Origin: an uncultured Eubacteriales bacterium
GTDB taxonomy: Bacteria; Bacillota; Clostridia; Christensenellales; QALW01
Reading direction: 5' to 3'
DNA: 64,000 nt
Assembly: GCA_900547955.1 (NCBI GenBank)
Contig: URIR01000005.1
Coordinates: 4,412 to 68,411 of the forward strand
Below the pieces are notes generated by a model. That model was not told the origin of the DNA. It made no database searches and was given only the letters and a program-made list of their open reading frames with translations. This document shows, one piece after another, positions 1,459 through 42,532 of the stretch. The first letter of the stretch is position 1; every line of letters starts with the position of its first letter. The position numbers and the translations under genes are program-made.

Positions 1459-4098
1459 TCAATTATATCTTTTACGCTTGTAAATTAAAACTCCTAATGT
1501 ACTTATAAGGCCGATTACTGCGGCTCCTGCGGTATATACAGTCATGTTGTCGCCGCTTTGGGACGGGTTATCCAGAGGAGATTCAACCAGCCTCGAGGAC
1601 GAGTAGAAATTACCAGATGGAGTTTTTGAGCATATACTTATATAATATACGCTTGCTTCGGCGGGTACTGTAACCTCCACTTTTCCATCGCTATATGTTC
1701 CTTGAACGGACAGCCATTTTTGCTCTATTTCATTTTTATCGTTATAGCTTAGCGGTTCGGTTGCGTAATACAGCGTGACGTCTATATCTGTTGCGTCTTT
1801 GGGCGCGTCCAGAGCCAGTTTAAGCTGTCGTCCCATGCCGGCCGTTGGCTGTTCAGTAAAATACGCCAGAGGCTCTCCGTCCTTTACGATGCTGTCGGCG
1901 AAACGGTAAATTTCTGCTGGGGTCCAGCCCTCTATATGTCCGTGCAGCAGACCGTGCTTTATGCATATCTGAGCGTTTTCCAAATTATCAAAGCTGCGGC
2001 TGCTGGTATTTACGCTCGCCGAAAAATCGCTGTCGCTGTTAAGTATGAGAACGGGCATTTTAACATTGTCAAAGCGCACAGAACCTTCCCATAGCTTATA
2101 AGTGGCTTCATCATAGCGTTCGCTTCTGTCCGACAGCGATTCGTGCATGTAACCGAACAGGTAAACAGGCACGGCAAAGGCAAACCGGGCGTCATAGCCT
2201 ATGAGATTAGCTACAACTGAACCTCCTGCTGAAATTCCGGTAACGCCTATTTTATCCTTATCAATAAGAGGGTCGGCGCGCAGAATATTATTTGCCAGAA
2301 TACTTTTGGCTACTGCGTGATAAAGCCATTGACGTTCAAGAGGCAGATTGCCCGTGCCGTAGCCTTCGGTAGCGCCGCCCTGGGCGTCCTGCGTCCAGCC
2401 GCCCTTGCCATCGGGCATAAGAGCTCCATGCTGGATGGCTATAGCGGCGTATCCGCGGTCATTCCAGATTTTTATCCATTCGGCAAAGGGATATCCACCC
2501 GAGCCGTGCAGCAGCAGCACGGCAGGTACGGGGTTTTCGGCGCTGGCCCCTTCGGGATATCCTATGTATCCGAAAGCGCGGGTGGGCTGGCCGCGATAGT
2601 CGTCTACGCTGTCATAATAGAAGCATTTTATTCCATTATAGCCTGCCGGGTCATATTCTGGAGTATATGTTATTTGAGGCGTATAGTTCAGCAGTTCGCC
2701 GTATCTCTCCTTAGCCTGCTCTACTGCCTCGTCTATACTGGACGGAGTCTCAGGCAGATTGCCTTCCTCGCCCGTTATGCCGCCCTCGTTAGGCTGATTT
2801 ATAATAAGCTGCGGGTCGTTGGTAAGATAGAAGGAATCAAAGCGATAGGAATCCCCGGCAAATGCGCCTGTGCAGCGCATATCCAAGCCTATGGTGGTTA
2901 CATCAAAATCCACCTTGGACATATCCAGCTTAAATACAACATAGCCTTTAAAGCTGGCTGGCACAGCGAATGAAGAATTGGCTACGCCCGAGCTGGATTT
3001 ATCTCCTCCTACCACCTTTAGGCTTTCTCCCTCGAGAGTATAAAGGGATACGGTATCGGCTGTGAGGTAGATGCGGGAGGAGGCGCCTCGAAGAGTAACG
3101 GTTAGATTGGTTTCAATTCCGGGTATTCCGTAATAATAAAACATAAAATACTGATAGTCTGCGGCATTAGAGTTAAACCGGCTTGTTAGAGCAGTATTTT
3201 GGCCGCAGAGCAGAACCTCGCACCATTGGCCGTTGACGGGCATTACCGAAGCGATGCCGTTGCCGGAGTGGCCGCTCTTTTTAATAAAGTATTCTGCTAC
3301 GGCTGGTACGCCGAATTGAGTCAGGTCAGATGAAGAATAGCCTTCTGGCATTGTGCTGTCTGTTTCAAAACTGTCAAAGCCCTCTAAAAGCATATAATCA
3401 TCGTTGTCCATATCGGGACTGCCGGGATTAAACATATCTATTACTTCCTTTGGCGAATTAGTTAAATAGAATGAATCGAAACCGTAGGAATCATCCTTGA
3501 GCGCGCCGTTTGTTCTCACATCCAATACAATGTTTGAGACGTCGAATTTTACTGACGACATATTCAGGCTGTAGACCACATAGCCATTAAAGCTTGCCGG
3601 TATAGTGATGGAAGAATTTTCTGCCGCGCCTGAGGCGTTGCCTCCCTTGACGGTCTGGCTCTCTCCATTCAAATTGTAAAGGGAGGCCTGACCGGCGGAA
3701 AAATAATATCTTTCCGAGGAGTCTCTTAGGGAAACGGTTAATTCAAGAGGTATGTTTTCTATGCCTTTTATATAAAACATAAAATATTTGTAGCCGTCTG
3801 CATTTGCCGCGAAATTACTGGCCAGGGCGGTGCCGGCGCTATGCAGAACCTCACACCATTGACCGTTCTTGGGCATTATCGAGGCAATTCCCTTGCCCGA
3901 ATGATAGACTGACTGGGAAACAAAATTGGGCAGAGCTATTCCGTAACTGGTTAAATCTCCGCCGTAGTAACCGTTTATGCCCTTTTCAAAATCTTCGAGC
4001 AGACAATAATTTGTCCCTTGCTGCGGAGCCGACTGGGAAATGGGCAGGATACCCAGAACTAGAATAACGGCAAGCAGCAATGTTACCGCGCGTTTCAT
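1459..4098 (-). CDS. Secreted alpha/beta-hydrolase (esterase) with two N-terminal tandem ~190-aa modules and a C-terminal TM anchor
   Basis: Signal peptide MKRAVTLLLAVILVLGILPISQSA and RBS AAGGAGG upstream. GxSxG nucleophile elbow GISAGGS and HGSGG oxyanion-type motif. C-terminal hydrophobic helix followed by KRKRYN. Confidence 0.75.
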   Translation of the reverse strand: MKRAVTLLLAVILVLGILPISQSAPQQGTNYCLLEDFEKGINGYYGGDLTSYGIALPNFVSQSVYHSGKGIASIMPKNGQWCEVLHSAGTALASNFAANADGYKYFMFYIKGIENIPLELTVSLRDSSERYYFSAGQASLYNLNGESQTVKGGNASGAAENSSITIPASFNGYVVYSLNMSSVKFDVSNIVLDVRTNGALKDDSYGFDSFYLTNSPKEVIDMFNPGSPDMDNDDYMLLEGFDSFETDSTMPEGYSSSDLTQFGVPAVAEYFIKKSGHSGNGIASVMPVNGQWCEVLLCGQNTALTSRFNSNAADYQYFMFYYYGIPGIETNLTVTLRGASSRIYLTADTVSLYTLEGESLKVVGGDKSSSGVANSSFAVPASFKGYVVFKLDMSKVDFDVTTIGLDMRCTGAFAGDSYRFDSFYLTNDPQLIINQPNEGGITGEEGNLPETPSSIDEAVEQAKERYGELLNYTPQITYTPEYDPAGYNGIKCFYYDSVDDYRGQPTRAFGYIGYPEGASAENPVPAVLLLHGSGGYPFAEWIKIWNDRGYAAIAIQHGALMPDGKGGWTQDAQGGATEGYGTGNLPLERQWLYHAVAKSILANNILRADPLIDKDKIGVTGISAGGSVVANLIGYDARFAFAVPVYLFGYMHESLSDRSERYDEATYKLWEGSVRFDNVKMPVLILNSDSDFSASVNTSSRSFDNLENAQICIKHGLLHGHIEGWTPAEIYRFADSIVKDGEPLAYFTEQPTAGMGRQLKLALDAPKDATDIDVTLYYATEPLSYNDKNEIEQKWLSVQGTYSDGKVEVTVPAEASVYYISICSKTPSGNFYSSSRLVESPLDNPSQSGDNMTVYTAGAAVIGLISTLGVLIYKRKRYN
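2803..4005 (-). repeat. Intragenic tandem duplication of a ~190-aa module (aa ~32-215 and ~236-432 of the esterase)
   Basis: Collinear motifs occur in both copies: LLEDFEKG/LLEGFDSF, GIASIMPKNGQWCEVL/GIASVMPVNGQWCEVL, YKYFMFYIKGI/YQYFMFYYYGI, IPASFNGYVVYSLNMSSVKFDV/VPASFKGYVVFKLDMSKVDFDV, FDSFYLTN in both. Confidence 0.75.
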
Positions 4099-4224
4099 TT
4101 TATCATTACCTCCTTAAAATGTATATTGAAATTTGCTATTAAATATTGTATATTATTATAAGAATGGTCTCCCATCAAAAAAATGAATGGCGCGATTTAT
4201 TTCATAGATAAGTGAAGTGAAGAA

Positions 4225-5736
4225 ATGAATACCGCATATTTGGAAAATTTCATTGCGATAGCAGAGGAGAAAAATATATCCGCCGCGGCTCGCCGTATGC
4301 ATATTGCTCAGAGCGCTCTGAGTACGCAGCTTAAAAGCCTGGAGGAGGAAACAGGCTGCGTGCTTCTAAGGCGCAGTCCCCACGGCGTGAGTTTGTCGTT
4401 TGAAGGAGAGCTTTTTTATAGATACGCCCGCCGTATGCTGGCTTTGGAGCGTGAATTGAAGGATAGACTGGGGGATTGCGCGGAGGGAGAGACAGGAGTT
4501 TTGAAGCTGGGGATAAGCTCGGCATGTCTGGCTTGGGTGCTGGACGGTCCGCTGCATCGCTTCGGCCGCAGATTTCCCAAGGTAAAATATGAAATATATG
4601 AAAAATCAGGCACAGAGGTGCTTACCGCGCTGAGGGATAGGATGGTGGACGTGGGAGTTATAAAAGCGCTGGCCGTTCCTATGGAGGATATGCGGGTGCA
4701 TTATAAAAATTCCGAGCCCATGGGCGTGCTGTATGAGAGCAGGGCAAATTATTTTTCAGGGGGAGATATTTCCTTTGCCCAGCTTAACGGCGTTCCCTTG
4801 TGTCTTACGCGCAGAACTCTTGCGGCTATTACTCATGCCTGCGCGGCTAACGGCTTTGAGCCGTCCATCAGCGTGCTTTGCGAGCAGTTTGAAACTGCGG
4901 CCAATATGGCGCTGAGGGGCAGAGGAGCGGCGATTGTGCCCCTTGCTATGGCCGAGAGGTATGCGCGGGGCACTTATTATGAGGATAAACGCTCCTATTT
5001 TCATGCGGCTAAGGTCAGGGTATATAAGCTTAACGGGGAAAGAATATACCCTGATATATGCGACGCTACCAGCAATGCGGACGAATGCTCGGTAGTGCTG
5101 CCTAAAGGCTTCGATGGATATTTATTATATCCTCTTGACGTACAGGCAACTGTTCCTCTGCGCAACAGGATGGATACGCGGGCCAGCATACAGAATATGG
5201 AGAGCGTAAATCGTATTGTGTTTGATTTCAGATTCAATGATGTTGAAAAGGGACAGCAATATGCTATAGGAGGGATATATATGGCTAACGATATATCCGA
5301 GCTGCCCGAGAGCTGCTGCGTGCTGGACGATTTCAGCGACGTATACCGTCTGGCCGACGAATATCGCGTAGCCGACCTTTCCAGTTACAGACAGAGTATT
5401 TCCATGATATCCTCCGGAGCGGTTAACGAATTGAAAAACGCCCTTATATTAACTGTGCCTAACAGCGAACAGTATGTGGATGCGGTGCATTGCTGCACCG
5501 ATTGGATGCACTCGCGTTTTTTGCCTAATGTGCATAATTACAGGTATTTTGCTGTGCGTATAATTAATATGGATATAAAGGAATTGTGCGTTTCTGTTAT
5601 GCTGCTTGAGCTTCCGCGCTTGAATATTGCAAGGCTGGAAGAAAAAGTGCTTGATACCGCTGTAACTGTAGTTTCATATTCAGATTGCCCTCTTTCAGCC
5701 CCAGCAGCCGAATTTGTTAAGGAATTTGAAAGGTAA
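4225..5736 (+). CDS. LysR-family transcriptional regulator with a ~200-aa in-frame insertion in the effector domain
   Basis: N-terminal HTH (ISAAARRMHIAQSALSTQLKSLEEE). LysR-type C-terminal end (...VVSYSDCPLSAPAAEFVKEF). Total length is 503 aa against ~300 for the family. It is divergent from the esterase gene. Confidence 0.8.
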   Translation: MNTAYLENFIAIAEEKNISAAARRMHIAQSALSTQLKSLEEETGCVLLRRSPHGVSLSFEGELFYRYARRMLALERELKDRLGDCAEGETGVLKLGISSACLAWVLDGPLHRFGRRFPKVKYEIYEKSGTEVLTALRDRMVDVGVIKALAVPMEDMRVHYKNSEPMGVLYESRANYFSGGDISFAQLNGVPLCLTRRTLAAITHACAANGFEPSISVLCEQFETAANMALRGRGAAIVPLAMAERYARGTYYEDKRSYFHAAKVRVYKLNGERIYPDICDATSNADECSVVLPKGFDGYLLYPLDVQATVPLRNRMDTRASIQNMESVNRIVFDFRFNDVEKGQQYAIGGIYMANDISELPESCCVLDDFSDVYRLADEYRVADLSSYRQSISMISSGAVNELKNALILTVPNSEQYVDAVHCCTDWMHSRFLPNVHNYRYFAVRIINMDIKELCVSVMLLELPRLNIARLEEKVLDTAVTVVSYSDCPLSAPAAEFVKEFER

Positions 5737-5810
5737 TGAGTAAGCAGGCGTACATAGGCTCAAGGCAGAATACTCCTTTTTTCAGAGGCTTATGAATAAG
5801 ATTATGATTA

Positions 5811-5930
5811 GCGGCGCAAAAAAATCCCGCGGCGTTTGCGGCCCTATAGGGCCGCTGGGCCGGGCGCAGCCCGGCCGGTCAGGCTCCCGGCAGGGAGCCT
5901 GACAAACGCCGCGGGATTTTTTTGCGCCGC
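5811..5930. terminator. Bidirectional terminator-like structure: 28-bp perfect outer stem enclosing three GC-rich hairpins
   Basis: GCGGCGCAAAAAAATCCCGCGGCGTTTG (5811-5838) is the exact reverse complement of 5903-5930. Inner hairpins lie at 5839-5854, 5859-5875 and 5879-5902. T7 runs follow the stem on both strands. It sits between convergent genes. Confidence 0.6.
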
Positions 5931-37926: not shown

Positions 37927-38089
37927 TACCCTAAATTGACAAGGGCATATACGGTCAGGACGGGGCTGTTTGAGTGTCCTGCTGTGTTGCTTTTCACTCC
38001 GTGTACTGAAAGCACACCCATTGACGATGACGCAGAAAATGCCGAAACCAGGCCGCTGGAGGCGTGTATCCCCTTGTCAATTTAGGGTA
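37927..38089. mobile_element. Short MITE related to family A (159-bp body, TA/TA flanks)
   Basis: Perfect 17-bp TIRs CCCTAAATTGACAAGGG (37929-37945) and CCCTTGTCAATTTAGGG (38071-38087), similar to the family-A TIR CCCTCAGTTTACAAGG. It ends 3 nt before the recombinase RBS. Confidence 0.6.
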
Positions 38090-38105: not shown

Positions 38106-38951
38106 TTGGAAGAAAGAATTCTAACAGAAAAAATTATTGAGGAGTTTTCCGAATATCTTAAAAGTGAAGAAAAGAGCAAAAATACCGTAGAAAAATATCT
38201 GCGCGACGCGCGCGCATTCGCATTATATCAAAATGGCGCGGCCGTAACTAAGGAGACGGTTATAGCTTACAAAGGCAGGCTGCTTTCCCAAAACTATGCC
38301 GCGAGGAGCGTTAATTCCATGCTGGCTTCCCTAAACAGCCTGTTTTTGTTTTTAAATTGGCTTGACTGCCGTGTTAAATTCATTAAATTTCAGCGGCAGA
38401 TATACTGTCCGGAGGAAAGGGAATTGACAAAAGCGGAATATATGCGTCTAGTGAATGCTGCCAAAGGAAAAGGCAATGAACGACTTAATCTGCTGATTCA
38501 AACCATTTGCGGAACGGGTATCCGTGTCAGCGAGCTACAATATATAACTGTGGAAGCGGCTGAATGCGGCAAGGCGGTTGTTTCATTAAAGGGAAAAACA
38601 CGCACGGTATTTATTATTAAGGAATTGCGACAGAAGCTGCTTCGTTATATAAAGTCGCAGAAAATTCGCGCAGGCGCAATATTTATTACTCGAAGCGGCA
38701 AACCTATGAGCCGCACTAATATCTGGCGGGAAATGAAAGGCCTTTGCAAGCAGGCGGGGGTAAATCCGGAGAAGGTGTTTCCGCATAATCTGCGTCATTT
38801 ATTTGCCCGTACCTTTTACGGCATTCAAAAGGATATAGCAAAGCTTGCCGATATACTGGGTCATAGCAGCATCAATACTACTCGCGTTTATATTATCGCT
38901 ACCGGCGACGAACACCGAAAGCAATTGGAAAATATGCGGCTTATAATATAA
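38106..38951 (+). CDS. Tyrosine site-specific recombinase (XerC/D-like phage-integrase family)
   Basis: SAM-like N-domain (KNTVEKYLRDARAF). Catalytic residues are GTGIRVSEL (R), HNLRHLFA (H-x-x-R-H) and LGHSSINTTRVYI (H, Y). TTG start at 38106 has GGAGG 8 nt upstream; the ORF-track ATG at 38064 lies inside the MITE TIR. Confidence 0.85.
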   Translation: MEERILTEKIIEEFSEYLKSEEKSKNTVEKYLRDARAFALYQNGAAVTKETVIAYKGRLLSQNYAARSVNSMLASLNSLFLFLNWLDCRVKFIKFQRQIYCPEERELTKAEYMRLVNAAKGKGNERLNLLIQTICGTGIRVSELQYITVEAAECGKAVVSLKGKTRTVFIIKELRQKLLRYIKSQKIRAGAIFITRSGKPMSRTNIWREMKGLCKQAGVNPEKVFPHNLRHLFARTFYGIQKDIAKLADILGHSSINTTRVYIIATGDEHRKQLENMRLII

Positions 38952-38952
38952 G

Positions 38953-38997
38953 AACCGTCCCAATAGACGGTTATAACATAATCCGCATTATGTTGTA
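38953..38997. promoter_or_regulatory. Recombination site 1 (IR-left) of candidate invertible switch
   Basis: Begins 2 nt after the recombinase stop. Flank hairpin AACCGTC-ccaata-GACGGTT, then core ATAACATAAT-CCGC-ATTATGTTGTA. 38968-38997 is a perfect 30-bp inverted copy of 39233-39262. Confidence 0.7.
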
Positions 38998-39041
38998 TAT
39001 TCTTGGCCATTTGCTCCAAACAACACAACAATACATAATAA

Positions 39042-39070
39042 AGAATATCATAAATAAGATAATATTGCAA
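39042..39070 (-). promoter_or_regulatory. Candidate promoter inside the invertible segment, currently pointing away from the surface-protein gene
   Basis: On the - strand: TTGCAA-17 nt-TATTCT with an extended -10 TG (TGaTATTCT). The region is AT-rich, so a chance match is possible. Confidence 0.3.
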
Positions 39071-39189
39071 GCCTTTTAAAGTCAAAATACAAAATTTGCA
39101 TGATTACTGCTTATTTAACACAGCACTAATAAGCCTTTTCAAAGCTGAAAATGAAAAGGTTTGATTTATCATATCCATTTTGGCTTGCC

Positions 39190-39221
39190 AGCGCTCGCGG
39201 TTTAGCTGCGAGCGCTTTTTT
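39190..39221 (+). terminator. Intrinsic terminator inside the invertible segment (functional only in the present orientation)
   Basis: AGCGCTCGC-ggtttagct-GCGAGCGCT followed by TTTTT. After inversion the U-run would precede the hairpin. Confidence 0.6.
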
Positions 39222-39232
39222 ACAACTGATTG

Positions 39233-39277
39233 TACAACATAATGCGGATTATGTTATAACCGCCTATCTGAGCGGTT
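39233..39277. promoter_or_regulatory. Recombination site 2 (IR-right)
   Basis: TACAACATAAT-GCGG-ATTATGTTATAACCG plus flank hairpin AACCGC-ctatctga-GCGGTT. The flank hairpin differs from that of site 1 by a compensatory base-pair change (T-A to C-G). Confidence 0.7.
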
Positions 39278-39328
39278 TTTATATTATCAGCTGTATATTT
39301 TTTAACTGCCTCCGATATTAGCTGCCTG

Positions 39329-39351
39329 CAACATAATGCGGATTATGTTGT
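39329..39351. promoter_or_regulatory. Recombination site 3 (third core copy, same orientation as site 2)
   Basis: CAACATAAT-GCGG-ATTATGTTG has perfect 9-bp palindromic arms around the same asymmetric GCGG centre. It lies 48 nt upstream of the LRR-protein ATG. Confidence 0.6.
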
Positions 39352-39398
39352 GCATGGGCCGGAAGGTAAAAGTCTGAGAAATTTAGGAGGAATTAAGA

Positions 39399-42317
39399 AT
39401 GGGTTTTATTAAGAAGCGCTTGCTGAGCTTTATGCTGGTCTTATGCATGATGCTTAGCCTGGCGTATCCTGCGGTATTTGCAAGCGGTCTGACTGAAGAA
39501 AATTTAATTGCGGTTCCGTTTGACGCTATGGTCATTGAAGGCGGAGTGTACTACGGTATTTCAAAGAGCTGGTTTGAAGAAAACAATCCGGAGGGGGAAA
39601 AGCTGTTTTTATCAGTCGAAATTCCAAACAGCGTAACCGCCATTTATAACGATGGATTCAGAGATAGCTGGTCAAATGAAAAACAGAAAAGAGGGTGTAT
39701 CACTAATTATAATTATGACGGTGATAAAAAATATACGGACAAATACGTAATTGTAGCCATTGATTTTTCAAATGCGGGCAATCTAACGACAATAGGCGAA
39801 CAAGCGGCCATGGGTTGTCCTGTGGAGGGCGTGCTTGATTTATCTAAGACAAAGGTTGAAACGATAGGAAAGAATGCATTTAAAGGATGCACCGGCATTA
39901 CGGGGGTGGTTCTTCCGTCAACCCTGAAAAATATAGGAAGCCAAAGCAGCGGGAGCGTCTTTTACGGCTGTTCCAGTATGCAATTTGTACACACGGCAGG
40001 TTCAGGCTCTCAATCGGCGTTTGAGCTTCCCGAGTCTTTGGAGGTAATAGGCAATCAGAGCTTCTATAAATGCACAGGACTGCCCGCAGGCACAGCCGTT
40101 ACAATCCCGGCTTCAGTTATTTATGTAGGAAGCGAGGTATTCAACTATACCCCCTCTATTACCACTATTATTGTAAAGACAGACGACGCGGGCAAGTACG
40201 ACGGTAAGGCGTTTTCTGACAGCACTAATAAATATGGGCTGGGAAACCGGCTGACTGTTTTTAATAATTCCGCTGCTAAAAACACATTCAAGCCGGGAGG
40301 TTCCAATTCATATAAGAACTCGCTGACTTATGAATTTACGCTGCATTATGGTTATGATACAGATGCTGTTACTCAGCCAAAGCTTTATGGACAGCCGGTT
40401 AATGTCTGCAAAAATGCCGAAGGGTCGTGGGCGGTAAATGAGCAATATCAGATTCCGGAGGCCGAGGCGGAAAACGCGCCCGTCGGCTATGACAGCGGCT
40501 GGACGTATAACGATAAACTTTTGACGGCGGAAACAATTTTAAAGCCGGATGGAGACCATTTATATTTGACTGCGAGCTTTGTTTTGCAGAATCCAACCAT
40601 TGAATTTATCGTGGACGGGAATGTAATTAAAACTGAAAATACATATCCCAAGCTCACTCTTTCTAACGATAAAGAGCATTTAATCGGAGTACAGGTTTCT
40701 CATCCCATCCAAAATGCTGAGGACGCGGATGTAAAAGTAAAATTTGAATATAAGTGGACTGATGTATGGAAGGGCGGCTCTGAAGGCCCGCGGATGAAAG
40801 AACCCGGCTTCGGAAGATATAATTTATGGGATAATCCCGATGTAACAAATACCATTACGATTAACGGATCCGAACATGAGAGAACATCTGCCGGCAATTA
40901 TTCGGGCGAAGATTACGGCGACGGGTATTATTTGTTGGAAGTATACGGATATTATATACCTAAGACGGGCGGACAATGGAAGCTTTTTTACAAATCGGCA
41001 AGCACGGTTATAGGTGCTGATTCCGAAAGGACGGTAAATACCGCTTATCGGTTTGATATCGTTACATCCGCTCCGGCTGAAATTCCTGCGGTTTCTATTG
41101 AGGATATTACTGTGGAATACGGTTATGACCAGGCGGGCTTTATTGCCTCGGTGGACGAACAGGAAGGATATACTTATACCTATCAATGGTACGAGGCGGA
41201 CGCTCAGGGGCAGTCGGAGAACGGACGTCCAATCCAAGGCGCAATAGATAATGAGTATTCTATTCCGACTGGGAAGGACGCGGGGAATTATTATTACTAT
41301 CTTGAAATAACCGCCGTAAAGGCGGATAACGGAGATATCGCCTCCATAGCAGTACCGGCGGGGATAACCGTTACGCCTAAAACTATTACCGTAACGCCTA
41401 AGGAGGGTCAGAAAAAGTATTTTGGCCAGCAGGATCCCGTTTTTGAATATACTCTGTCCGAAGATTGCGGTGCGGAGATAATTGGACGTCTGGAAAGAGA
41501 AGCGGGGGAAGAGATTGGCGCATATATATTTACAAAGGGAACCTTAGCCGTTAATAATCCAAATTATCAGCTGATATTTGCAGAGGGGAATTATACCTTT
41601 GAAATTCAGGAGTATATAGCTGAAGCTGTATTTTCCCCCGAGCAGCCTGATGGAGAGGATAACTGGTATTCCTCAAGCGTGGCGGTTGCTCCTCCTGAAG
41701 GTCATTCCATCAGTATTGACGGCGGAAAAACATGGAGCACAGAGCCTATTCTTTTGGACGAATATGACGGTGATTTTGAGTACCTGCTGCGTTCTGACAT
41801 GGAGGACTATACAAATGGCGCCGTAGCCGTTAACGTAAAACCGCTGAGAGTGGATACTTTAATCCCGGTTATCGAGGGCATTAAAGACGGGATGGTATAT
41901 TGCCTGGAAGCAAGGTTTCAGGTAATAGATAAAAATCTGCGAGACGTAACGGCAAACGGGCAGACTGTAATCCTTAAAGACGGTTTTTATGTTTTGCCGG
42001 CCGGTCAATATGAGATTGCCGCTTCTGACGCCGCCGGCAACAGCGTGACGATAAATGCTGTGGTCAAGCCTGAGCATACTTTTGGCGATTGGATTGTGCT
42101 AAAGGAGGCCACGGCGGCTGAACAAGGCGTAAAAGAGCATATATGCTCGGTATGCGGCTATAAGGAAACCGCTGAAATTCCTTATAATTCAGGAAACACG
42201 GATACTCCGCAGATGGGAGACAGTATTAATACAATGCTGTGGGCCGCGTTAATGCTGGTCTGCTCCGCTTCGCTGGGCATTATAGGAGTTTATAAAAATA
42301 AAAAGCGCACGAGGTAA
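39399..42317 (+). CDS. Cell-surface protein: signal peptide, BspA-type leucine-rich repeats, Ig-like/MBG domain, C-terminal TM anchor
   Basis: Signal MGFIKKRLLSFMLVLCMMLSLAYPAVFA. LRRs (IGEQAAMGC...ETIGKNAFKGCTGITGVVLPSTLKNIGS...LEVIGNQSFYKCTGL). MBG-like block ITVTPK...KKYFGQQDP.FEYTL...GRLEREAGEEIGAYIFTKGTLAV.NPNYQLIF..GNYTFEI. TM helix plus KNKKRTR tail. Confidence 0.8.
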   Translation: MGFIKKRLLSFMLVLCMMLSLAYPAVFASGLTEENLIAVPFDAMVIEGGVYYGISKSWFEENNPEGEKLFLSVEIPNSVTAIYNDGFRDSWSNEKQKRGCITNYNYDGDKKYTDKYVIVAIDFSNAGNLTTIGEQAAMGCPVEGVLDLSKTKVETIGKNAFKGCTGITGVVLPSTLKNIGSQSSGSVFYGCSSMQFVHTAGSGSQSAFELPESLEVIGNQSFYKCTGLPAGTAVTIPASVIYVGSEVFNYTPSITTIIVKTDDAGKYDGKAFSDSTNKYGLGNRLTVFNNSAAKNTFKPGGSNSYKNSLTYEFTLHYGYDTDAVTQPKLYGQPVNVCKNAEGSWAVNEQYQIPEAEAENAPVGYDSGWTYNDKLLTAETILKPDGDHLYLTASFVLQNPTIEFIVDGNVIKTENTYPKLTLSNDKEHLIGVQVSHPIQNAEDADVKVKFEYKWTDVWKGGSEGPRMKEPGFGRYNLWDNPDVTNTITINGSEHERTSAGNYSGEDYGDGYYLLEVYGYYIPKTGGQWKLFYKSASTVIGADSERTVNTAYRFDIVTSAPAEIPAVSIEDITVEYGYDQAGFIASVDEQEGYTYTYQWYEADAQGQSENGRPIQGAIDNEYSIPTGKDAGNYYYYLEITAVKADNGDIASIAVPAGITVTPKTITVTPKEGQKKYFGQQDPVFEYTLSEDCGAEIIGRLEREAGEEIGAYIFTKGTLAVNNPNYQLIFAEGNYTFEIQEYIAEAVFSPEQPDGEDNWYSSSVAVAPPEGHSISIDGGKTWSTEPILLDEYDGDFEYLLRSDMEDYTNGAVAVNVKPLRVDTLIPVIEGIKDGMVYCLEARFQVIDKNLRDVTANGQTVILKDGFYVLPAGQYEIAASDAAGNSVTINAVVKPEHTFGDWIVLKEATAAEQGVKEHICSVCGYKETAEIPYNSGNTDTPQMGDSINTMLWAALMLVCSASLGIIGVYKNKKRTR

Positions 42318-42330
42318 TTATTATAATATA

Positions 42331-42373
42331 ATCAGCGCTTAGGCGGCGGAAATTCCGCCGCCTAAGCGCTGAT
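42331..42373. terminator. Perfect 19-bp-stem hairpin after the surface-protein gene
   Basis: ATCAGCGCTTAGGCGGCGG-aaatt-CCGCCGCCTAAGCGCTGAT. No strong T-run follows, so termination efficiency is uncertain. Confidence 0.5.
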
Positions 42374-42532
42374 TAGCAAGACACGGGGGCCGGAATATAT
42401 TAATATCGGCAAAAAATAACGGGAAAAACCGTAAAAGGTTTTTCCCGTTATTAGTCTTTTAGCTGTAATTCTGTCCTATCCGCAGTACATTTTTATATGC
42501 TGTAAATAACATTTTTATCGCGTGGCGGCATC

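Follow-up and report, generated by a model that had tools for sequence, protein, structure and literature searches.

Between the gene of a Xer-like tyrosine recombinase and the gene of a large leucine-rich repeat (LRR) surface protein in an uncultured Eubacteriales bacterium (GenBank assembly GCA_900547955.1, contig URIR01000005.1, positions 4,412 to 68,411 of the forward strand; this whole 64-kb stretch of DNA is called the window) lie three copies of one short recombination core. The locus raises the question whether the DNA between the two genes is switched by recombination and, if so, what a third site does to such a switch. An earlier note, made from the letters of the window, had described a three-site inverted-repeat switch. 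From a comparison of the window with further copies of the locus we conclude, with a probability of roughly 0.85, that the locus is a recombination switch for phase variation of the LRR surface protein and that it is run by the adjacent Xer-like recombinase. The parts needed for the argument, by their positions in the window, are the following.

38106 to 38951, plus strand: gene of the Xer-like tyrosine recombinase, the presumed invertase (281 aa from TTG 38106)
38975 to 38994, plus strand: recombination site 1 (AACATAATCCGCATTATGTT), fixed beside the recombinase gene and a junction point in all rearranged assemblies
38995 to 39235, no strand: invertible segment A, 241 nt between sites 1 and 2, AT-rich, in the presumed OFF orientation in the window and inverted in L001, L050 and L139
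39236 to 39255, plus strand: recombination site 2 (AACATAATGCGGATTATGTT), inverted relative to site 1 and a junction point in rearranged assemblies
39256 to 39329, no strand: segment B, 74 nt between sites 2 and 3, with a gapless 74-nt alignment to 38901-38974; found right of A, left of A, or absent
39330 to 39349, plus strand: recombination site 3 (AACATAATGCGGATTATGTT), fixed beside the LRR gene and a junction point in L001 and in the assemblies with B left of A in window orientation
39399 to 42317, plus strand: target gene, encoding a 972-aa BspA-type LRR protein (Pfam LRR_5 1.1e-18, MBG_2 3.8e-8)

The three sites, which span 375 bp and adjoin the recombinase gene, are exact 20-bp cores of the form AACATAAT-SCGS-ATTATGTT, with the centre CCGC at site 1 and GCGG at sites 2 and 3. 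The layout given in the earlier note was borne out: exact copies begin at 38975, 39236 and 39330, the third is oriented like site 2 and lies just 5' of the LRR gene (49 nt from the end of the site to the ATG at 39399), and a fourth copy was not found anywhere in the window even when 3 mismatches were allowed (chance expectation 0.02). The perfect 30-bp inverted repeat that the note had pointed out (38968-38997 and 39233-39262) can be read directly from the sequence; it is the heart of a 99-nt inverted repeat (38904-39002 and 39228-39326, matching at 79%), which overlaps the final 16 codons of the recombinase gene.

Whether the sites recombine can be read from 26 further complete loci of the same species, which with the window make a comparison set of 27. 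The further copies were found by exact-protein look-ups with the recombinase and near-identical alleles and by a metagenome pattern scan (an exact look-up of the 972-aa LRR protein in the contig index gave no match); all of them are metagenome assemblies from other human-gut samples, with flanks about 99% identical. The arrangements were read from the assemblies, which give one consensus arrangement per sample. We write A+ for segment A in window orientation and A- for its inverted form, B+ for segment B to the right of A and B- for segment B to the left of A. Five arrangements were found.

A+B+, 10 assemblies: the window, L007, L009, L013, L041, L042, L043, L049, L137, L138
A-B+, 2 assemblies, the product of recombination between sites 1 and 2: L050, L139
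B-A-, 1 assembly, the product of recombination between sites 1 and 3: L001
B-A+, 6 assemblies, one more inversion away from A-B+ or from B-A- (for the latter between the middle and right sites): L008, L014, L040, L044, L046, L091
Two-site A+, exactly 94 bp shorter, 8 assemblies: L003, L004, L006, L010, L011, L012, L015, L045

Both inversion products that the earlier note had predicted, that of sites 1 and 2 and that of sites 1 and 3, are among them, and the comparison that it had called for, a search for flipped versions in related genomes, yielded all four three-site arrangements among the same-species assemblies. L001, for example, is 99.4% identical to the window, with 38975-39349 inverted. 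Eight of the nine possible end-to-end joins of the six segment ends were seen, all precise at the core, the ninth being that of the excised circle. With three sites in both orientations, A is found inverted alone, together with B, and beside a relocated B, as expected of multiple inversions. Segment A has the OFF orientation in 24 of the 27 assemblies, and B lies to the right in 12 and to the left in 7. The window, which the note had called locked OFF, is in the OFF state yet not locked, A being inverted in other assemblies.

Strains of differing arrangement are separated by 1-6 substitutions in 3.4 kb of flanks (L014 and L006 by 1 single-nucleotide polymorphism, L001 and L009/L013 by 4, the window and L012/L015 by 6), the two-site form occurs in at least 4 strain backgrounds, and the arrangement does not track strain phylogeny. 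Arrangement changes far faster than the flanks diverge. That the locus is an active recombinational switch we hold with great confidence, somewhat greater than for the switch's purpose and operator. The deletion between sites 2 and 3, also foreseen in the earlier note, stands less firmly: a form exactly 94 bp shorter is present in 8 assemblies, and its origin by loss of B is probably real, not proven. We considered that the short form might be a mixed assembly path through A+B+ and B-A+ populations and rejected this as a general explanation on assembler reasoning, because both short-form junctions would have to be in the majority in one sample at once, and the two populations mixed could not supply that; the same junctions also occur one in A+B+ and the other in B-A+. 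Three further contigs (L002, L047, L048) terminate within the switch and the path of a fourth (L005) runs B-, A+ and then B+, mixing two states. Broken and mixed-path contigs are the effect expected from a mixed population on an assembler.

We infer that the inversions are catalyzed by the adjacent recombinase, homologs of which adjoin the same site pair in many Clostridia. Its gene most likely starts at TTG 38106, because GGAGG stands 8 nt upstream and the resulting 281 aa are the length of nearly all relatives; an alternative open reading frame call begins at GTG 38064 (295 aa). The stop codon occupies 38949-38951, the first hairpin begins at 38953 and site 1 begins 23 nt past the gene end. 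The protein has the Pfam domains Phage_integrase (8.7e-27) and SAM_1, and its nearest solved structure is XerA (4a8e, 103 bits), with the catalytic R, H-x-x-R, H and Y aligned. It scores under the cut-offs of the NCBIfam Xer models (XerD 117 vs. 330 bits, XerC 111 vs. 335, XerA 145 vs. 220) and reaches only 30-40 bits with the models for Fim-type invertases. The description as XerC/D-like given in the earlier note therefore holds as far as Xer-like is concerned and fails at the XerC and XerD equivalog cut-offs. A role in XerC/XerD dimer resolution is not matched, the equivalog scores being missed and the sites numbering three instead of a single dif-type site.

The codons of the catalytic HNLRH motif (38784-38798, CATAATCTGCGTCAT) resemble the core (CATAATCCGCATTAT), with 80% over 15 nt, and the left boundary of the B homology lies just past the codons of the catalytic tyrosine (..TATATTATC..), which are likewise similar to the right arm of the core. 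These core-like recombinase codons may be due to chance or may hint that B arose via recombination at a pseudo-site.

What is switched can be seen from the elements in and beside segment A.

39042 to 39070, minus strand: predicted sigma-70-type promoter (-35 TTGCAA at 39070-39065, 17-nt spacer, TG extension, -10 TATTCT at 39047-39042)
39131 to 39162, plus strand: internal hairpin AAGCCTTTTC...GAAAAGGTTT (-11.2 kcal/mol), with the same motif in L018, L021, L029, L035, L123, L125, L131 and others
39190 to 39222, plus strand: strong intrinsic terminator, its hairpin at 39190-39216, a 12-bp stem followed by TTTTTT (terminator scan; -21.8 kcal/mol, z = -4.2)
39350 to 39398, plus strand: leader of the LRR gene with the ribosome-binding site AGGAGG at 39385-39390 (sequence reading)

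The segment has a GC content of 0.33-0.34 as against 0.43-0.52 in its surroundings. The promoter, which is present as the earlier note had given it (TTGCAA-17-TGaTATTCT on the minus strand, pointing away from the LRR gene), lies 47-48 nt from the segment end and aims at the recombinase gene in the window and at the LRR gene once A is inverted; a promoter-like site is conserved in this position across about 25 related loci, and we take the one in segment A to be active. In the leader of the LRR gene (39350-39398) no promoter-like site was found. The terminator that the note had expected to lose its U-tail upon inversion was recovered by the terminator scan and by its fold energy, and the opposite strand of 39190-39222 is without a U-tail, so the terminator would be functional in the A+ orientation only. 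The hairpin at 39131-39162, which is conserved in the family, is possibly a second plus-strand terminator. As judged from these elements, A- is probably the expressing orientation.

The LRR protein has an N-terminal signal peptide and a tail resembling a sorting signal (TPQMGD, a hydrophobic stretch and KNKKRTR); this C-terminus, encoded within 41200-42317, is laid out like a sortase signal, although its motif is unusual. In L050 and L139 (locus 3794-5827) the LRR allele is truncated to 677 aa and has lost its C-terminal anchor. The two assemblies come from different data sources and probably represent a single strain lineage. Downstream of the gene, 14 nt past its stop codon, there is a perfect palindrome with a 20-bp stem (42331-42373), followed by a second hairpin with a 16-bp stem (42415-42452); the two are probably the terminators of the LRR gene.

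The origin of the third site is connected with segment B and with the hairpins that flank the switch.

38953 to 38972, minus strand: left-flank hairpin with T-rich tail (AACCGTCTATTGGGACGGTT CTTATATTAT), a presumed terminator (terminator scan; -10.5 kcal/mol)
39258 to 39287, plus strand: B hairpin (39258-39277) with T-run (AACCGCCTATCTGAGCGGTT TTTATATTAT), facing the LRR gene with B to the right of A (terminator scan; -8.9 kcal/mol)

By its alignment to the left flank, segment B can be identified as an inverted and decayed duplicate of the final 16 codons of the recombinase gene and of the presumed antisense terminator behind them; it is therefore an antisense-terminator copy that has a good site at either end. 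Its minus strand encodes a stop-interrupted recombinase C-terminus (..RRQLKNIQLII* vs. ..HRKQLENMRLII*), followed by the hairpin. It differs from the left flank at about 21% of positions, and among all fetched loci no donor was found that matches B better than the left flank of its own locus. The hairpins in the two flanks, which the earlier note had related through a compensatory T-A to C-G change, were both located, with T-rich tails pointing away from the centre; they are homologous because B is a decayed copy of the left flank. The compensatory change maintains the stem of the B hairpin relative to the left-flank copy, and the T-run of B is better than the original (TTTTTATATTAT vs. CTTATATTAT). 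The flank hairpins look like outward-facing terminators and not like accessory structures of the recombinase.

From these elements we propose the following mechanism. The recombinase would invert the DNA between any two oppositely oriented cores. In A+ (OFF) the promoter would fire toward the recombinase gene and be halted by the minus-strand hairpin at 38953-38972, while the terminator at 39190-39222 would keep transcription that runs on from the recombinase gene out of the LRR gene; in A- (ON) the promoter would face the LRR gene and the terminator would be without its U-tail. Inversions between any opposite pair of cores give A+B+, A-B+, B-A- and B-A+, and B therefore moves between the sides of A. 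A full cycle could lead from A+B+ to A-B+ (sites 1 and 2), to B-A+ (sites 1 and 3), to B-A- (middle and right sites) and back to A+B+ (sites 1 and 3). The states A+B+ and B-A+ would be OFF. B-A- would be ON, as the sole state with the promoter directly before the LRR gene, about 110 nt upstream of the start codon and with one core between; in A-B+ the promoter would also face the gene, with the B hairpin and its T-run intervening, and expression may be weakened. With B to the left of A, its hairpin would add to the shield before the recombinase gene. Recombination of the directly repeated sites would remove B and leave an ordinary two-site switch. The directly repeated cores are always 94 bp apart, which is short for looping and may therefore explain a slow excision of B and its persistence. 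Since B can cross A only via the A- state, either A- is visited frequently and left again, or there is selection against A- cells. The 677-aa truncation of the LRR protein in both A-B+ assemblies is compatible with a cost of the intact protein; coming from one probable lineage, it proves nothing.

Several observations weigh against the switch as drawn here: A is inverted in 3 of the 27 assemblies only, two of which (L050, L139) have the truncated LRR gene; the promoter in the window is a weak consensus match (TTGCAA/TATTCT), albeit with a TG extension; most examples of the two-site form are MEGAHIT-type assemblies, in which read pairs are ignored; and the B hairpin is modest, with 13 of 200 shuffled sequences folding equally well at -8.9 kcal/mol, so that B may be a neutral by-product. 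If short inverted repeats had confused de Bruijn assemblers, there would be a single true arrangement and the others would be artefacts. That only metagenome assemblies were compared, that L005 mixes two states and that several contigs stop in the switch would fit this. Misassembly is nevertheless not credible, because the repeats of 20-30 bp are far shorter than the k-mers used (k119-k141, SPAdes) and the junctions are unique to each state, such as that of the promoter end of A with the LRR leader in L001 or of the terminator end of A with the left flank in L050 and L139; moreover, the states recur across unrelated samples and different assemblers, L091, which has homopolymer indels typical of long reads, is B-A+, and related modules occur in both orientations. 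We consider an assembly artefact extremely improbable. Equally improbable is a small mobile element, either a miniature inverted-repeat transposable element (MITE) or a tyrosine-recombinase transposon, with the inverted repeats as its ends. Terminal inverted repeats do adjoin a recombinase gene here, and a true MITE with TA duplication 1 kb upstream indicates that elements of this type are active in the genome. A mobile element, however, does not account for the absence of further core copies in the 64 kb and of a target-site duplication, for the same position between CopA, recombinase and LRR genes in all strains, for variants that are in-place inversions and not presence or absence of a whole unit, or for a promoter and terminator layout conserved across species. 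A third MITE family, which the earlier note had named as a finding that would refute the switch, is likewise not what was found: the window has no other copies, and the site pair travels with homologous recombinases across many Clostridia.

It is also conceivable that the switch mainly controls the recombinase itself or produces a regulatory antisense RNA, the orientation of A setting the end of the recombinase mRNA as known from fimE. The promoter aims at the recombinase gene in 24 of the 27 assemblies and in most related loci, the T-run of the left-flank terminator is poor in the present species, and the 3' end of the recombinase mRNA would differ by orientation. In most of the family, however, a dedicated minus-strand terminator stands before the recombinase gene, and the downstream genes, without a promoter of their own, start 24-130 nt past the distal site. 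Control of the recombinase would add to control of the LRR gene and not replace it, and as the main function we regard it as unlikely. The locus could also be an ordinary two-site promoter inverton in which B is a neutral relic of a left-flank duplication, passively shuffled via its good site without effect on expression, the short form being a clean-up product. No other related locus with both sites has more than two; B holds a stop-interrupted pseudogene fragment and a weak hairpin; and it is missing in 8 of the 27 assemblies from at least 4 strain backgrounds. Against a neutral B speak the hairpin kept by a compensatory pair and the improved T-run despite about 21% divergence, the perfect 20-bp core that was retained, the presence of B in 19 of the 27 assemblies despite direct repeats of an active site on its flanks, and its about equal occurrence on either side of A. 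We give even odds to this explanation. That B modulates expression at all is a tentative proposal, on the doubtful side, and that B is a working movable terminator in a four-state register, with two OFF states, one dimmed ON and one full ON state and an irreversible exit by B excision, appears rather unlikely. If true, the locus would be a non-coding shufflon that grades the expression of a surface protein beyond simple toggling, and the shielding of the recombinase gene from antisense transcription would be altered as well.

How far the module extends beyond this species was seen in a scan for the core over one genome per prokaryotic species and a metagenome collection, which yielded 96 stretches. 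The scan of the genomes of GTDB gave a best recombinase identity of 71%, the same species not being among its results, and the scan of the metagenomes gave one same-species contig (L091) and many relatives. About 70 of the 96 stretches contain an inverted core pair, 158-420 bp apart and mostly about 260 (230-300), and nearly all of these pairs directly adjoin a recombinase homolog of 45-77% identity (45-83% over all the loci of other species that were compared). The hosts are Oscillospiraceae, Butyricicoccus, Dysosmobacter, Faecalibacterium, Ruminococcus and Lachnospiraceae assemblies. None of the about 70 loci with both sites has a third, so the three-site layout is unusual, as the earlier note had supposed. 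The closest protein relatives, about 80% identical and numbering thousands in the database, have the same layout with another core centre.

The arms ACATAA and TTATGT are kept in the related modules, and the six central bases vary (TCCGCA here, TCCATT in L123, ACGGTA in L125, ACGGCA in L131). Strand exchange by tyrosine recombinases needs identical overlap regions. A variable centre would therefore stop co-resident modules from recombining with each other, and six variable bases suggest a 6-nt overlap over a 4-nt centre. For a tyrosine recombinase 4 nt would not be enough; an overlap of 6 nt (TCCGCA) flanked by arms of 7 bp is likelier. The core form given in the earlier note, palindromic arms with a centre that sets the orientation, stands in this respect, and its limitation of the centre to 4 nt does not.

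About 25 related loci have near-consensus promoters (TTGACA or TTTACA, 17 nt, TGnTATAAT) that end 46-49 nt from the segment end, and the weaker promoter of the window is at exactly the same position. In most related assemblies the promoter is aimed at the recombinase gene, in L026 and L034 at the downstream gene. A flipped pair is also available in another module, L093 being the inverted version of the module in L059 and L100; this module, which has an SPFH/Band-7 gene downstream, is seen in either orientation when the assembly of L093 is compared with those of L059, L100, L105 and others, and its promoter has an extended -10 (TGATAAAAT) and a poor -35. Between recombinase stop and site 1, a minus-strand GC hairpin with T-run was found by a strict scan in 23 of 43 distinct left flanks and by eye in further ones, amounting to most of the family, which fits a terminator that protects the recombinase gene against the promoter when the segment is OFF. 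Plus-strand hairpins or terminators occupy the far half; in OFF they would halt transcription running on from the recombinase gene, and in ON they would be without function. The downstream genes, starting 24-130 nt past the distal site, encode among others BspA LRR proteins, collagen-repeat surface proteins, a DNA methylase, a ResIII helicase, an SPFH protein and a PD-(D/E)XK nuclease. This is the usual cargo of phase variation.

The surroundings of the locus in the window are ordinary chromosome, with dnaX, recR and the genes of a CNNM transporter and CopA. In the whole 64 kb no Rfam family, tRNAs and riboswitches included, reached its gathering score. Upstream of the recombinase gene there is an inverted repeat (37927-38089), which was considered as a second inverton controlling the recombinase and ruled out, since it was never inverted in 22 assemblies. 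It belongs to a 158-bp MITE-like element (37929-38087) with 17-bp terminal inverted repeats (CCCTAAATTGACAAGGG; arms at 37929-37945 and 38071-38087) and a TA target duplication; its insertion point is 12 nt 5' of the ribosome-binding site of the recombinase gene. The element is absent in one strain lineage: L003-L005 have a clean empty site, and from the gene spacing it is probably also absent in L137-L138. Each arm contains TTGACA and might therefore affect transcription of the recombinase gene. In L008 (locus 1-2500) genes for AraC/GyrI-like, sigma-70 region-4 and HTH_16 proteins replace the CopA end upstream of the recombinase, which suggests that a mobile element was inserted between the two genes.

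Invertible promoters are a main route of surface variation in gut bacteria. To our knowledge those of Clostridia are known almost only through read-mapping surveys. How a very large Clostridial family is built can be seen clearly from the present locus: there are a Xer-like invertase and an antisense terminator, the conserved arms enclose a 6-nt centre that is specific to each module, and the promoter, fixed in its position, is accompanied by one-way terminators. It is also a natural case in which a third site turns a toggle into a system of four arrangements, each of them documented in human-gut samples. Should the B hairpin act as a terminator, the locus would be nature's equivalent of the synthetic state machines in which recombinases rearrange promoters and terminators, and it would show how phase variation can become graded. 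For metagenomics it is of practical importance that such switches break contigs and can yield mixed-path assemblies, and that tools looking for a simple pair of inverted repeats would mis-score a three-site locus.

The closest analog appears to be the promoter inverton with a cis-encoded tyrosine invertase, of which fimS of E. coli with FimB/FimE and the gut invertons found with PhaseFinder are examples. Common to them and to the locus described here are a segment of about 250-300 bp between short inverted repeats, a promoter that drives (in our locus, is predicted to drive) a neighboring surface gene in one orientation, a tyrosine recombinase gene next door that is not itself switched, and the occurrence of both orientations in natural populations; as with fimE, the recombinase gene reads into the switch, which makes its mRNA end dependent on orientation. 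Different are the full-length Xer-like recombinase, the strong one-way terminator that is also on the segment, and three sites with two segments in place of two sites with one.

In C. difficile the cwpV promoter is located before the switch, which acts only through a terminator formed in the OFF orientation, and RecV, whose gene is at another place, acts on several switches. The likeness to cwpV/RecV and to gut invertons put forward in the earlier note is good for the inverton part. With cwpV the locus shares the Gram-positive gut anaerobe as host, the large cell-wall protein as target and a terminator that is functional in one orientation only (PMC2784873). With its external promoter and a recombinase encoded at a distance, cwpV/RecV is the poorer fit: our locus has the promoter inside the segment and an adjacent, presumably dedicated recombinase.

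The family itself has probably been met before. A study of the defined community hCom2 described a Clostridia inverton group 139 of about 254 bp with invertase group 35, with hosts including Intestinimonas butyriciproducens and Clostridium sp. D5, nearly always near a tyrosine recombinase/integrase gene and with shifts of orientation in culture (PMC11892184). Size, host range and gene neighborhood agree with the module family described here, and group 139 is probably the family of the present locus; in the text of that paper that was searched, a three-site layout is not mentioned (PMC11892184). A literature search found no description of the core sequence, and none of a non-coding three-site switch in the literature on nested or three-repeat invertons. 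As far as we can tell, the family is known in outline, and the three-site, two-segment layout with all its states documented is new.

Systems with more than two sites are known from the shufflons (R64 Rci), from vpma, vsp and vsa of Mycoplasma and from pneumococcal hsdS. As in the locus described here, one tyrosine recombinase acts on sites in both orientations, and segments are inverted singly or together and change their order; in vpma/vsp/vsa, moreover, the recombinases are Xer-like and inversion relocates one single promoter. These systems, however, swap coding segments or choose between genes, whereas our locus has a single target gene, and neither of its segments is coding.

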